Below, one piece after another: positions 18,276 to 21,831 of a stretch of 21,831 bases of DNA; position 1 is the stretch's first letter; every line of letters starts with the position of its first letter. Under the pieces are notes generated by a model. That model had not been told where the DNA came from and made no database searches. It saw only the letters and a list, made by a program, of their open reading frames with translations. A program made the translations under genes and the position numbers. The DNA lies in IMG/VR virus record IMGVR_UViG_3300042259_000129; one strand, written 5' to 3'. Source of the stretch: a virus. Its lineage: Duplodnaviria > Heunggongvirae > Uroviricota > Caudoviricetes.

Positions 18276-18347
18276 TCCGGGATAGCTCAGTGGCAGAGCA
18301 AGCGGCTGTTAACCGCTCGGTCGTAGGTTCAACCCCTACTCCCGGAG
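18276..18347 (+). tRNA. trnN: tRNA-Asn(GTT), CCA not encoded
   Basis: Acceptor TCCGGGA/TCCCGGA, anticodon stem GCGGC..., loop CTGTTAA, T-loop TTCAACC; followed by G-CAA. Confidence 0.93.
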
Positions 18348-18356
18348 CAAAAACAT

Positions 18357-18432
18357 GGGGCCATAGCTCAACTGGGAGAGCACCTGCCTTGCACGCAGGG
18401 GGTTAGGAGTTCAAGTCTCCCTGGCTCCACCA
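18357..18432 (+). tRNA. trnA: tRNA-Ala(TGC)
   Basis: GGGGCCA/TGGCTCC with G3:U70, loop TTTGCAC-type (CTTGCAC), CCA encoded. Confidence 0.95.
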
Positions 18433-18440
18433 AAAAGTTT

Positions 18441-18473
18441 TTTGTTTACAATCTGTTTAAAGGAGAGTATAAT
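18441..18473 (+). promoter_or_regulatory. Early/sigma70-like promoter TTTACA-17-TATAAT
   Basis: TTTACA at 18445-18450 and TATAAT at 18468-18473. Confidence 0.65.
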
Positions 18474-18678
18474 GTCTAAGAATACTGTTGATCTTTATCT
18501 CAAAAATGGTTACATTCTTACTGCAGAATATGATGAAGATACATATTTTGAACTTTATGATAATTGGTATTCTGGTAAAGCAAAGATTTTACAGTTTGAG
18601 AATTGCTCAGTAAGGGCTGAAGATATTTCAGCAATTGAATGGGAACAGATTCCATTCTGTGAAGAAGTTGGAGAATAG
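18472..18678 (+). CDS. Hypothetical protein, 68 aa
   Basis: AAGGAG precedes ATG 18472, a better start than the track's TTG at 18442. Confidence 0.65.
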   Translation: MSKNTVDLYLKNGYILTAEYDEDTYFELYDNWYSGKAKILQFENCSVRAEDISAIEWEQIPFCEEVGE

Positions 18679-18721
18679 TTTTTGTTTACAACATGGTTAA
18701 TCCTTGATAAGAAGTAGATAT

Positions 18722-18808
18722 GGCCTCGTGCTGGAATAGGAAGACAACGAAAACTCAAAATTTTCGGCAGGAAAAAACTGCGTGTAGGTTCGAACCCTAC
18801 CGGGGCCA
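18722..18808 (+). tRNA. trnL: tRNA-Leu(CAA), long variable arm, CCA not encoded
   Basis: GGCCTCG/CGGGGCC, stem GAAAA/TTTTC around CTCAAAA, T-loop TTCGAAC. Confidence 0.9.
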
Positions 18809-18843
18809 CATTTTAGTTGAAACGCAATTTACTTTTTTAAAAA

Positions 18844-18890
18844 TATAAATAGATATTTAGGTTCAAACAAAGGAGAATATATCTATTATG
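18844..18890 (+). promoter_or_regulatory. Late promoter and start-region hairpin of the third endonuclease
   Basis: TATAAATA at 18844-51. AATAGATAT (18848-56) pairs with ATATCTATT (18879-87) just before ATG 18888, and AGGAG is in the loop. Confidence 0.6.
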
Positions 18891-19883
18891 AAATGTGAAT
18901 ATGGGTGCGGCCAAGAAGCTAAATATAAATTTAAAAATGGAAAATGATGTTGCTCAAAAAAATTTTCACAATGTCCTAATTATAGAAAAAAGAAATCAAT
19001 CTCGTTAAAAAGAGAACACAGAGAAGGCAAAAGAAGTTATTCTCAACTTGATGGAAAAAGAGAATGAAATAAGGGTTTAACAAAAGAAACAGATGAAAGA
19101 GTTGCTAAAGGTGCAGAAACATATATAAAAAGATATAATGCGGGAGAAATAAAACACCCACTAAAAGGAAAACACCTCTCTAAAGAACATAGAGAATCTA
19201 TTTCAAAAGGTAGAATAAAAAATCTAGAAGAATCTTCAAATTCTGGATTTGTTAAAACAAAATATTATAAAATATATTGTCCCTATATAGAAGATTATGT
19301 TAATGTACAAGGTACATGGGAGTTTAAGTATGCAGAATATCTTAATAAACAAAATATAAAGTGGGTCCATTCAAGAAAATACATATTAAAATATTTTAAT
19401 AAAATAGAAAGACACTACTTTCCAGATTTTTATTTACCTGATTTGGATGAATACCATGAAGTTAAAGGATGATTCATGAATTCAGATAAAGAGAAAATGA
19501 AGTACGTTATACAATATAATAGAGATAAAAAAATACGCATTTTACAAAAGAAACAATTAGAAAGATTGGGAATAGATTTAAATAGTTGTGTTGAATCTGA
19601 CGTTCATAGAAATAGAAATATCAAAAAAGAAAAAATAAAAATTTTAAAACACACAATAACATGAATACATGATAAAGCTACAGTTCTAAAATTAGGGAAC
19701 TTTAATAATAATTTAATAATCGAAAGAAGAGAACTATTAGATAAATCTGGAATAGATTTGACGAAATATGGTTGGGTAGATAAAGTTTCCAAATTATGAA
19801 ATTGTTCCCATACACAAGTCAAAAGGTATATGAATAAGTATTTAAAAGAATACGAGGTATATAGAAGAAAAACACAAATCTAG
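18888..19883 (+). mobile_element. Free-standing PD-(D/E)xK homing-type endonuclease inside the tRNA cluster, 331 aa; 5 TGA
   Basis: MKCEYGCGQEAKYKFKNGK(W)CCSK...QCP, (W)NKGLTKETDERV, KGKHLSKEHRESIS, QGTWEFKYAEYL, YFPDFYLPDLDEYHEVKG(W); TAG at 19881-19883. Confidence 0.82.
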
Positions 19884-19948
19884 TAGAAATATAAGCGGTG
19901 GAAGTCTAAAACGCTACTGGACGTAGGCCAGTATTTTCTACTTATTAC

Positions 19949-20023
19949 GCCTCTATAGTTTAACTGGAAAAACGAGGGATTTGTAACCCCTAGTTCACGG
20001 GTCAGTTCCGTGTGGAGGCTCCA
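19949..20023 (+). tRNA. trnT: tRNA-Thr(TGT), atypical T-loop
   Basis: GCCTCTA/TGGAGGC, loop TTTGTAA, T-stem CACGG/CCGTG around GTCAGTT, CCA encoded. Confidence 0.75.
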
Positions 20024-20025
20024 AT

Positions 20026-20101
20026 GTATCTATAGCATAATGGTTAGTGCACCGGACTTTCAATCCGGATTATGTCAGTTCGACCCTGACTAGATACACC
20101 A
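20026..20101 (+). tRNA. trnE: tRNA-Glu(TTC)
   Basis: GTATCTA/TAGATAC, stem CCGGA/TCCGG around CTTTCAA, CCA encoded. Confidence 0.88.
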
Positions 20102-20105
20102 ATTT

Positions 20106-20183
20106 ACCCTTGTAGTCCAACTGGAAGGAGACAGCAGCCTTAGAAGCTGAACAGTGTAGGTTCGAATCCTACCGGGGGTACCA
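20106..20183 (+). tRNA. trnL: tRNA-Leu(TAG) with a short variable loop
   Basis: ACCCTTG/CGGGGGT, loop CTTAGAA, 5-nt variable region, T-loop TTCGAAT, CCA encoded. Confidence 0.82.
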
Positions 20184-20203
20184 AATTTTTATGGATGGTC
20201 AAT

Positions 20204-20277
20204 CAGAGTGTAATGTAGTGGTTGCATCCGTGCCTTGGACGCACGTAGTGGAAGTTCGATTCTTCCCACTCTGACCA
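20204..20277 (+). tRNA. trnP: tRNA-Pro(TGG)
   Basis: CAGAGTG/CACTCTG, stem CGTGC/GCACG around CTTGGAC, CCA encoded. Confidence 0.92.
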
Positions 20278-20280
20278 AAA

Positions 20281-20352
20281 GCGGTTATCATATAATGGTT
20301 ATTATCTCAGTCTTCCAAACTGGAGATGTCGGTTCAATTCCGACTAACCGCT
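20281..20352 (+). tRNA. trnG: tRNA-Gly(TCC), CCA not encoded
   Basis: GCGGTTA/TAACCGC, loop CTTCCAA, T-loop TTCAATT; followed by T-CAA. Confidence 0.9.
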
Positions 20353-20361
20353 CAAAAATAA

Positions 20362-20396
20362 TTTGTTTACATGTTCTTTGACCTAACTTATAAATA
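20362..20396 (+). promoter_or_regulatory. Composite early and late promoter of the small ORF, RNA array and large protein unit
   Basis: TTTACA (20366-71), 17 nt, TATAAA; overlapping TATAAATA at 20389-20396. Confidence 0.65.
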
Positions 20397-20430
20397 ATTT
20401 ATCAACAAACAATAAACCAGGAAAATAAAA

Positions 20431-20574
20431 ATGATCACTATGTGGATTGTTAGAACTGAAACAGAGAGTTTCCCCTATTATTCATATGAAAAAGCTCTTG
20501 AAAACATGGAAGAAAATGATTCTATTGAATGTGTAGTTCTTAATGACCCAGGTGAAATTGAAATTTATCTTTAA
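20431..20574 (+). CDS. Small acidic hypothetical protein, 47 aa
   Basis: AGGA upstream. MITMWIVRTETESFPYYSYEKALENMEENDSIECVVLNDPGEIEIYL, TAA. Confidence 0.55.
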   Translation: MITMWIVRTETESFPYYSYEKALENMEENDSIECVVLNDPGEIEIYL

Positions 20575-20575
20575 A

Positions 20576-20793
20576 TTTTAGGCTATGAATTTACTTCCTC
20601 CCAAAGGAACAAACCGTTAATTTGTAAATAGTAAATTCAATTTCCTAATGTCAGTAGGCTATAGTAAAACTTCCTTCTTATTAAGGATCACTACATAAAA
20701 ATAGTTTTGCTGCTTTCCTACATTTTATATGGCTATGGGTAAAGTTCCTTCTAATTAATTATGAAATAAAAAATACTTTACCCAATTTCCATT
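20576..20793 (+). ncRNA. Array of three tandem structured RNA units (GGCTA - 10-bp stem - TCCTYC - variable loop - stem' - N - TTTCC)
   Basis: Units start at 20581, 20657 and 20731. Each has a different 10-nt 5' arm matched by its own 3' arm in identical register. Confidence 0.75.
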
Positions 20794-20813
20794 CTTAATT
20801 TTGTGAGGTAAAA

Positions 20814-21831
20814 ATGTCTGATCTATTTCTTTCTGCTATTAAATACAAAATGGTAGTTTGCCCTGCAATCACAAATCTTCGCACTCAAAAACGAACATAT
20901 CTTTATAATCCAACAGATTTTCAAGTAGCTCATACATTTGCATCTATGATGATGGAATATGGTTATATTCCCTCTCGTCAGATGTTTGATGATCTAATGT
21001 CTATGGATGATTATCAAATTGCTCAGATTTTTGATAATCTTCAAACTGCTCTTGAAACTATCACTTCAAAGAAACTTATTCAAAATGCTAGGGTGTTTTA
21101 TGAGAATTTTCCTAATGTTCCATTTTCTCTTTTTGAGCAAAGACTATTAGCTATTTCTCATTATTATTCTAGAGGTTCTTTCTTCCCTGATGATATCAAA
21201 ATCACACAAAAACAAAAAAGGGAAATCCGAATCGATGAAAATTTCAAATTTACTGAGTTGTCATTTGCTTCTATAAATGATGTTAAAGAGCTTGTTTTTG
21301 ATAAGCTGCTTTGTTCCAAGAATTCACTACCTGTAGATGATATTGAATTTATTAAACTTTCTGTTCCTCTTCTTTTTGATGAGCATGATGTGGATCGTTT
21401 ACCTAATATTTTAGATAGTATTATCCATAAGGAACATCTAGCTATTTTTGTTTCTATAATCTTCAAGCATTTTGGAAGTTCAGTACATATCAAAAATGCT
21501 TTTATTTCTGGAAAGAGATATTCTGTAACAGATGTTCTTAGAATTGCTACTGCTCTTTCAGGGGGAGATATTTCTCTTGCAGAAAATACAAAATTTAAAT
21601 TAAATAGACCAGAAAGAAAATTTATTGTTGAGCTTTTGGACTCTACAAATCTTTCTTTTGATGATCTTCTTATTCATAAAAACAAATGGGTAAAACTTTT
21701 CCACTGTATCCATATTGGGGAATTCTCCCCAAAACTATTCAAATGGTCTAAAGTAGTTAGAGAAAAGTTCAAAGTTAGAACTTTTAATAATGTAACAGAA
21801 TCTTTGTTTAATTCATATATTGAGTATAAAG
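20814..21831 (+). CDS. Large, probably alpha-helical protein of unknown function (5' part; runs off the right edge)
   Basis: GAGGT precedes ATG 20814 and the frame is open to the window end (339 codons). Motifs FYENFP, KLLCSKNSL and TDVLRIATALSGGDISLAENTKFK...KWVKLFHCIHIGE. From memory this motif set occurs in large phages and near Ter stress loci, which is unverified. Confidence 0.8.
   Translation, partial: MSDLFLSAIKYKMVVCPAITNLRTQKRTYLYNPTDFQVAHTFASMMMEYGYIPSRQMFDDLMSMDDYQIAQIFDNLQTALETITSKKLIQNARVFYENFPNVPFSLFEQRLLAISHYYSRGSFFPDDIKITQKQKREIRIDENFKFTELSFASINDVKELVFDKLLCSKNSLPVDDIEFIKLSVPLLFDEHDVDRLPNILDSIIHKEHLAIFVSIIFKHFGSSVHIKNAFISGKRYSVTDVLRIATALSGGDISLAENTKFKLNRPERKFIVELLDSTNLSFDDLLIHKNKWVKLFHCIHIGEFSPKLFKWSKVVREKFKVRTFNNVTESLFNSYIEYK

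Follow-up and report, generated by a model that had tools for sequence, protein, structure and literature searches.

The stretch of DNA analysed here (hereafter, the window) is 21,831 nt long and corresponds to bases 36754-58584 of a 133 kb virus record in IMG/VR (IMGVR_UViG_3300042259_000129), which has a G+C content of 31%. A Pfam scan identified a gp32 gene 3' of the gene considered below, indicating that the phage is T4-like. Near the right end of the window, three tandem hairpin units lie between an array of tRNA genes and the 5' part of a gene for a large protein, P0001, referred to here as the partner gene. The units had been picked out in a first-pass annotation, made from the letters alone, as covarying RNA hairpins that might be binding sites or processed small RNAs for the downstream protein. 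They are best explained as genes for small structured RNAs belonging to a widespread family that is absent from Rfam 15 and from the literature searched.

All three units are on the plus strand and share a common plan: a lower stem of 4-5 bp, an internal loop in which CUA stands opposite (A/C)UUU, an upper stem of 10 bp and a loop starting with UCCUYC. Unit 1 (20577..20649) has a lower stem at 20578-82/20644-48 (TTAGG/CCTAA), a CUA/AUUU internal loop, an upper stem at 20586-95/20630-39 and a loop of 34 nt. The lower stem of unit 2 (20653..20722) is GUAGG/CCUAC, its upper stem (20662-71/20703-12) includes two U-G pairs and its loop is 31 nt, and unit 3 (20727..20794) has a lower stem of AUGG/CCAU, an upper stem at 20736-45/20775-84 and a loop of 29 nt. 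The coordinates and sequences in the first-pass annotation were all correct, with GGCTA found at 20581, 20657 and 20731 (spacings of 76 and 74 nt), and the separate complement it had described for each unit is present, the upper stems being paired at 10/10 positions in each of the three. The covarying lower stems, the CUA/N-UUU internal loop, the loop lengths and the UCCUYC start of the loops were likewise as it had described. The window contains the pattern GGCTA-N10-TCCTYC at three places, where 100 shuffles gave an expectation of 0.00, and the 246 nt stretch folds as exactly these three hairpins (z-score -3.3). A clustered regularly interspaced short palindromic repeat (CRISPR) array and intrinsic terminators were both rejected as the identity of the units, and a terminator scan of 20200-21000 placed an intrinsic terminator after none of the three.

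Directly 5' of this module are eight tRNA genes (Asn, Ala, Leu, Thr, Glu, Leu, Pro and Gly; 18276..20353, plus strand), which were detected by ARAGORN and by the Rfam tRNA model. They are followed by a promoter-like element (20366..20396, plus strand) that was read from the sequence and consists of TTTACA (20366-71), a 17 nt spacer and TATAAATA (20389-96). Its wording would recall a T4 early -35 box fused to a T4 late-promoter box, and an element of the form TTTAC(A/T)-spacer-ATAAATA/TATAAT occurs 94-181 nt 5' of unit 1 in six of the seven close loci (the window and the six relatives described below). A generic sigma-70 scan of 20200-21000 gave nothing useful, and the element was not among its predictions. 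Between the element and unit 1 is an open reading frame (ORF) of 47 amino acids (aa) (20431..20574, plus strand), identified from its translation, for which Pfam and PHROG scans found no family. A similar small ORF was called in three of the relatives (L005, L006 and L007), and in the other three (L004, L008 and L009) a tRNA-Pro gene is found at the same place, ending 5-13 nt before unit 1. The end of unit 3 is 20 nt from the start codon of the partner gene, a distance of 20-28 nt across all seven loci, and the Shine-Dalgarno sequence GAGG (20805..20808, plus strand) lies within a conserved UUGUGAGGUAAAAAUG that is kept across the seven leaders. The partner gene itself (20814..21831, plus strand) is represented by 339 of its 722 codons, its ORF leaving the window; the protein is 722 aa in the full record. 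From this arrangement, the three RNAs and the partner gene appear to form one transcription unit that starts where the tRNA array ends, at the conserved promoter-like element.

The close relatives are six other uncultivated T4-like phages, in which the protein is 53-61% identical to P0001 and three units are present at the same place in every case (6/6). The 21 units of the seven loci were aligned with MAFFT, and in this alignment 95.6% of the cells are paired and both-sided change is seen at 12 of the 15 pairs. The covariation score was 0.76, compared to 0.21 in shuffles, and was reached by none of 500 shuffles. When the partners were slid by 1-3 columns as a control, pairing fell to 29-51%, and unguided prediction with RNAalifold gave the same two helices. 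Orthologous units retain their own identity between close loci, as seen in the loop of unit 1, AACAAACC(G/U)UUAAUUUG, which is constant across all seven while its stem varies. A further 119 sequences from more distant loci (see below; G+C 0.21-0.63) show pairing in 94.4% of cells and both-sided change at 13 of the 15 pairs; their alignment was fitted to the model, and the 21-unit alignment is the cleaner test of covariation. Selection on RNA structure, which had been proposed from the compensatory changes among the three paralogous units, is thus shown also by the orthologous units of six phages and by the 119 distant matches. The U-G and G-U pairs of the stems become A-C mismatches on the other strand, so that it is the plus strand that is functional and the molecule is RNA.

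A covariance model (R1) was derived from the 21-unit alignment and searched around homologues of P0001 in viral contigs, the distant ones being 27-35% identical. Within the whole 133 kb record the model matches only at the three units, with scores of 72.5 bits for unit 1 (E 1e-15), 69.0 bits for unit 2 and 68.2 bits for unit 3. A cutoff of E<1e-5 left 119 matches, which are spread over 56 of 63 viral loci (protein 27-61% identical) at 1 to 6 copies each. Upstream of the gene lie 88 of them and downstream 31 (up to 1.8 kb), none falls inside it, and all 119 are on the gene strand. With the threshold relaxed to E<=10 the matches number 191, nearly all on the gene strand, the sole two on the reverse strand having E-values of 0.33 and 2.2. 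The motif is also found no more than about 200 nt from the gene in each of four bacterial contigs (Niallia taxi, Ferruginibacter, Hahella and Aliikangiella), the Hahella copy being on the strand opposite to the gene and Niallia taxi having two copies immediately 3' of it. Two named phages carry it as well: the cultured Xanthomonas jumbo phage XacN1, with three copies in an unannotated gap 5' of ORF396 at about 288,994-289,373 on the minus strand of AP018399.1, and Rhodococcus phage Weasels2, with a weak copy 3' of gp266. The consensus of the 119 sequences is NNNGG-C(U/C)A-U-N8-9-CU-UCCUUCUA...(19-100 nt)...AG-N8-(G/A)-(A/C)UUU-CCNNN, and the heptamer UCCUUCU is nearly invariant, every position being constant in at least 117 of the 119.

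For comparison, a control set of 100 viral loci (903 kb) was chosen solely by a 14-base partial pattern, and is made up mostly of chance matches to that pattern. At E<1e-3 the model found matches in seven of these loci, all seven of which have a homologous gene adjoining, and it found none in the 91 control loci that lack the partner gene. The link to the downstream protein that was supposed in the first-pass annotation is therefore borne out by co-occurrence, similar units being present near homologous genes in 56/63 viral and 4/4 bacterial loci, versus 0/91 of the controls without the gene. Both the existence of the RNA family and its linkage to the partner gene are firmly shown by these data.

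The motif matches no family in Rfam 15. A cmscan with all 4,227 families of Rfam 15 returned nothing at the gathering score for the units, and just noise at E<=10 on 20350-20900, while Rfam searches of 18 other motif loci returned tRNAs and one GOLLD only. The GOLLD RNA (RF02032, 184.7 bits; L146:5232-5698, plus strand) is about 700 nt 3' of the gene for the Ro60-like/TerD protein on that phage contig, with tRNA genes inside and beside it, so that three kinds of structured RNA occur there side by side. A blastn search of the region against GenBank phages gave no match, and when antisense targets of the conserved unit 1 loop were sought throughout the phage genome, only the locus itself and one chance match with three mismatches came up. 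In the full-text literature, searches found no relevant account joining TROVE with TerD, or TerD with Y RNA or phage noncoding RNA; a survey of jumbo phages handles TROVE and TerD separately (PMC7824862).

Copies of the RNA are often found in the company of tRNA genes. A tRNA gene lies within 2.5 kb in 35 of 67 viral loci with the partner gene, compared to 7 of the 91 control loci, and tRNA arrays are also found upstream in all six close relatives. The model has 12 matches in the complete genomes of five jumbo phages (2.26 Mb), and 9 of them flank the partner gene. Two of the remaining three are strong, complete copies that are separated from the gene by 72 kb and 145 kb, with no homologue nearby, in arrays of 13 and 12 tRNA genes, respectively; each is a stand-alone copy, one per 8 kb array (L217, G002:C1:128600-136600; L218, G003:C1:299500-307500). 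The twelfth match is weak (E 5.5e-4) and also far from the gene. Among the family members with long loops, those in L170 and L207 have GGUUCGAAUCC-type T arms, and one of them a canonical D arm. In one close relative, ARAGORN reports a tRNA with the anticodon UCA (L007:1079-1153, plus strand; called tRNA-SeC) that would read UGA, and P0001 is without an in-frame TGA. The same locus has an IS605 OrfB/TnpB-type gene inserted 3' of gp32 (L007:6616-7602, plus strand; Pfam OrfB_IS605 and Cas12f1-like_TNB), and homing endonuclease genes (SegE GIY-YIG, HNH and DUF559) are dispersed through the related loci.

The protein encoded by the partner gene belongs to a family with about 2,100 representatives at 50% identity (E<=1e-3), distributed among large phages and bacteria that the sources assign to several phyla, and annotated as 'hypothetical' or 'TerD family'. 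Scans of P0001 detected no Pfam or PADLOC family and no nuclease or modifying-enzyme family, and the sole PHROG match was to 33734, which is of unknown function. A glutamate and a histidine (E207 and H300) are invariant in the family. The AlphaFold model of P0001, made with 114 homologues, has a predicted local distance difference test score of 91.3 and a predicted template-modelling score of 0.90. In this model, residues ~490-650 form a TerD beta-sandwich (3ibz, Z 16.3; 2qng, Z 15.9; 2kxt, Z 13.5; root-mean-square deviation 2.4-3.7 Å, ~150 residues). A Foldseek comparison with TerD folds, one of two suggested in the first-pass annotation, recovered the same sandwich at E 4e-5, with Swiss-Prot TerZ and TerD at E 5e-6 to 3e-5. 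The Pfam TerD domain (PF02342) is present in P0112, one of the homologues listed, and 'TerD family protein' is the name given to homologues in some records. The sandwich and the C-terminal helices that follow are encoded past the end of the window, and the N-terminal helical region is encoded inside it.

The helical region (residues ~154-480) is, in the predicted structure, a candidate for a HEAT-repeat ring like that of Ro60/TROVE. When the full model was compared by VIA-align, seven Ro60 entries (human, Xenopus, Deinococcus and Thermus phage phiLo) gave Z 10.1-13.0 over 312-337 residues, with the next unrelated row at 7.1, and when the N-terminal region alone was compared with 48,161 chains, phiLo Ro60 (Z 10.6) and Deinococcus Rsr (Z 9.2) were the only chains with Z of at least 8, although values of Z 9-13 can be reached by helical repeats through arrangement alone and are not decisive. 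The Foldseek comparison with Ro60, also suggested in the first-pass annotation, had a divided outcome: with the full model, Ro60 was matched at a probability of 1.00, as was the Tetrahymena telomerase protein p80, a TROVE protein, but with the N-terminal model alone the search against the PDB gave no significant match and no Ro60 among the best 50 matches listed. The five complete jumbo phages with the partner gene encode no protein that matches Pfam TROVE, which is compatible with a P0001-type protein standing in for Ro60. The predicted models thus support a 'Ro60-like fold' for P0001, and make it at most a candidate TROVE homologue.

Considered together, the sequences and models suggest that the small RNAs and P0001 may form an undescribed RNA-protein particle resembling that of Ro60 with Y RNAs. 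We consider it reasonably probable that the Ro60-like/TerD protein has these RNAs as its partners, the two making up a Y-RNA-like particle whose role relates to tRNA. Each RNA comprises a constant 'handle' and a variable apical part, which is short in this phage. The handle consists of a terminal stem that finishes with G-G/C-C, an internal loop with unequal sides of C(U/C)A and (A/C)UUU, a helix of 9-10 bp that is free in sequence and closes with C-G and U-A, and the unpaired, invariant UCCUUCU(A), and could serve as the binding site of the neighbouring protein. In the protein, a Ro60-like helical region would be followed by TerD where Ro60 has its vWA domain, so that RNA and protein could build a particle on the Ro60/Y-RNA plan, which might act on tRNAs or other structured RNAs during infection. 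The RNAs would presumably be processed into free species; in the three relatives whose tRNA-Pro gene precedes unit 1 by 5-13 nt, the array would be released on its 5' side when the tRNA is processed. Autoregulation is also plausible because unit 3 ends so close to the start codon, and protein bound there could damp its own translation.

Besides the reservation already made about Z-scores and the Foldseek result with the N-terminal model, several observations weigh against this reading. Pfam TROVE (PF05731) gave no match to P0001 at E<=1, to the whole record at E<=10 or to 74 members of the family, and Pfam TerD misses P0001. Neither sequence nor profile searches of PDB chains recovered Ro60, and TerD was marginal at E 0.5. 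In AlphaFold DB, the clusters that match best consist of uncharacterised proteins and bear the labels ZorC EH-domain, DUF4132, Prok-RING and TerD family rather than Ro60. The handle (GGCYAU ... CUUCCUUCUA ... AG ... NUUUCC), as given by the 119-member consensus, contains none of the Y RNA motifs GGUCCGA, GNCGAAN0-1G or CGAA. Finally, all three units of this window belong to the 5' leader and keep a set spacing from the start codon, a position that also fits a purely cis role.

Such a role would make the hairpins operators or stabilisers in the 5' untranslated region (UTR), bound by the protein or by another factor that controls translation or decay, with no free small RNA. Its appeal is that in the window and the six relatives the units are between the promoter-like element and the start codon, with unit 3 beside the Shine-Dalgarno sequence, and that 88 of the 119 family members are upstream of the gene. 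A location confined to the 5' UTR, as expected of a leader or riboswitch, is however a property of this window's units and not of the family: because 31 of the 119 copies are downstream, the Hahella copy is on the opposite strand and the orphan copies are 72 and 145 kb away in tRNA arrays, the family is not leader-like. The tRNA-like modules of some members, and the tRNA just ahead of unit 1 in three loci, where processing would cut the transcript, also speak against a leader only. The arrangement of the family argues for small RNAs that may act in trans rather than for a mere leader, and we regard an exclusively cis function as distinctly unlikely. A second alternative retains the functional link to the protein and dispenses with the stable particle, the RNAs being substrates, decoys or sensors. 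As small RNAs of tRNA arrays they might, for example, titrate anticodon nucleases or RNases of the host, or be targets of modification or cleavage by a protein that is no Ro60-type scaffold. This alternative would fit the strong enrichment beside tRNA genes and the orphan copies inside tRNA arrays, and the phage encodes Rnl1- and Rnl2-type RNA ligases elsewhere. The likeness to Ro60 is moderate, and the nearest predicted-structure clusters carry the ZorC EH-domain, DUF4132 and Prok-RING labels noted above; the EH motif of ZorC is required for nucleic-acid binding (PMC11946911), and its correspondence to the family-invariant E207 and H300 is a candidate one. Nevertheless, phages and several bacterial phyla share an invariant, unpaired UCCUUCU and a fixed internal loop, which resemble a protein-recognition site, and near one-to-one linkage with a single protein family is the pattern of an obligate RNA-protein partnership such as Ro60 with Y RNA. 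As the scans of the protein also detected no nuclease or modifying enzyme, this alternative is judged to be rather unlikely.

Tandem structured RNA units directly 5' of a gene on the same strand bear a surface likeness to a type III toxin-antitoxin array such as ToxIN, in which RNA repeats are cut into units that neutralise the toxin. The units here are not near-identical, their repeated parts being 71-82% identical, and their stems differ by compensatory change. Copy number ranges from 1 to 6, copies may be downstream or far away, PADLOC and Pfam gave no match to ToxN, AbiEii or any defence family, and the predicted fold is a helical repeat with TerD rather than an endoribonuclease, all of which make such a system highly improbable. 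It is scarcely credible that the units are repeats working at the DNA level alone, whether as protein-binding sites, as a mobile cassette or as a recombination signal, given that the G-U pairs would be mismatched on the other strand, that pairing is kept through double changes amid sequence divergence, that orientation follows the gene in 119/119 viral matches, and that the genome has no other copies.

A fuller version of the Y-RNA-like particle can be put forward tentatively, although we think it somewhat improbable in all its parts. It would be a second Ro60-type particle, without the sequence signatures of Ro60 and Y RNA, in which a TROVE-like ring fused to TerD (which may sense Ca2+ or a nucleotide-derived signal) grips a universal handle (GGCYAU/UCCUUCU/UUUCC). 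The exchangeable apical module, a tRNA mimic in some members, would direct the particle to tRNAs or to tRNA-processing enzymes, and phages would place the RNAs in or beside tRNA arrays to guard or triage tRNAs against the tRNA-cleaving defences of the host.

A large protein family that travels with its own structured RNA, absent from Rfam, is of interest in several respects. Should the pair form a particle, thousands of orphan genes would gain a function, the Ter/TerD world would be joined to RNA biology, and phage tRNA arrays would acquire a new component. The combination of a constant handle and an exchangeable module would, in addition, lend itself naturally to use as a scaffold in RNA engineering. 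Both XacN1 (ORF396), a Xanthomonas phage, and Niallia taxi are cultured and carry the pair.

RNA-guided RNA quality control has its model in Ro60 with Y RNA, a system whose roles in bacteria and phages are still poorly understood. Known examples include YrlA/YrlB of Salmonella, Yrn1 of Deinococcus and Yrl1/Yrl2 of Thermus phage phiLo (PMC4201824, PMC12135203). The Ro60-binding motif of Y RNAs is GGUCCGA in animals or GNCGAAN0-1G in bacteria, in a terminal stem, and tRNA-like T and D arms characterise the bacterial Y RNAs of the YrlA type (PMC4201824). The phiLo Ro60 gene has two Yrl RNAs upstream (PMC12135203), and the units of this window are likewise upstream of their gene. As in Ro60/Y RNA systems, the small RNAs adjoin the gene of a helical-repeat protein, are often multi-copy and occur in both phages and bacteria. 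As in Y RNAs, the 5' and 3' ends of the family pair into a stem with an irregular, conserved handle, beyond which is a variable apical module of 19-100 nt. The T and D arms found in L170 and L207 are YrlA-like; none are present in the three units of this window, with their 29-34 nt loops. The analogy with Y RNA and Ro60 drawn in the first-pass annotation has gained support, in that among solved structures Ro60 matches the helical region of P0001 best, TerD follows that region and some members have T and D arms, but the TROVE profile of Pfam does not recognise the protein. Further differences are that no Rfam family matches the RNAs, Y-RNA models included, that the C-terminal domain of P0001 is TerD and not vWA/MIDAS, and that P0001 has an additional N-terminal region of ~150 residues. 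The partner gene has no rtcB neighbour here, and no RtcB is present in this record. An Rnl2-type RNA ligase (PF09414, G000:C1:72463-72972) and a T4 Rnl1-type ligase (PF09511, G000:C1:86339-86959) are encoded outside the window. Together, Rnl1 and Rnl2 are the usual tRNA-repair kit of T4. RtcB is thus lacking and these ligases are 15-29 kb from the module, so that nothing ties it to RNA repair through an operon.

Other described systems share single features with the pair. The C-terminal beta-sandwich of P0001 is like those of TerD, TerE, TerZ, SCP2 and YceE, the TerD-family proteins of operons for tellurite resistance and stress, but classical TerD proteins are single domains of ~190 aa encoded in ter operons, while in P0001 the domain is the C-terminal third of ~700 aa and ter genes are not nearby; we know of no RNA partner for classical TerD proteins. 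Among AlphaFold DB clusters the N-terminal region best matches a 498 aa protein labelled 'ZorC EH domain-containing' (E 6e-13, TM score 0.64), alongside which stand DUF4132 and Prok-RING_4 fusions, likewise helical and uncharacterised. Neighbours of the protein in the ESM Atlas include SCO0854-type RING proteins with the same helical module, and the invariant Glu and His are candidate equivalents of the EH motif. Pfam EH_Signature was not found in 74 members of the family, however, no ZorC was among the PDB matches listed, ZorA, ZorB and ZorD, its partners in type I Zorya, are absent, and ZorC binds double-stranded DNA and has, to our knowledge, no RNA partner. Small non-tRNA RNAs at the end of a T4-type tRNA array also recall, by description, the stable RNAs C and D of T4 (species 1 and 2), which are small non-tRNA RNAs of unknown function in the T4 tRNA cluster, and for which we know of no dedicated protein gene. 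The closest described system is that of phage and bacterial Ro60 with Y RNAs, from which the pair described here differs in the sequence of the handle, in the C-terminal domain of the protein and in all sequence signatures.

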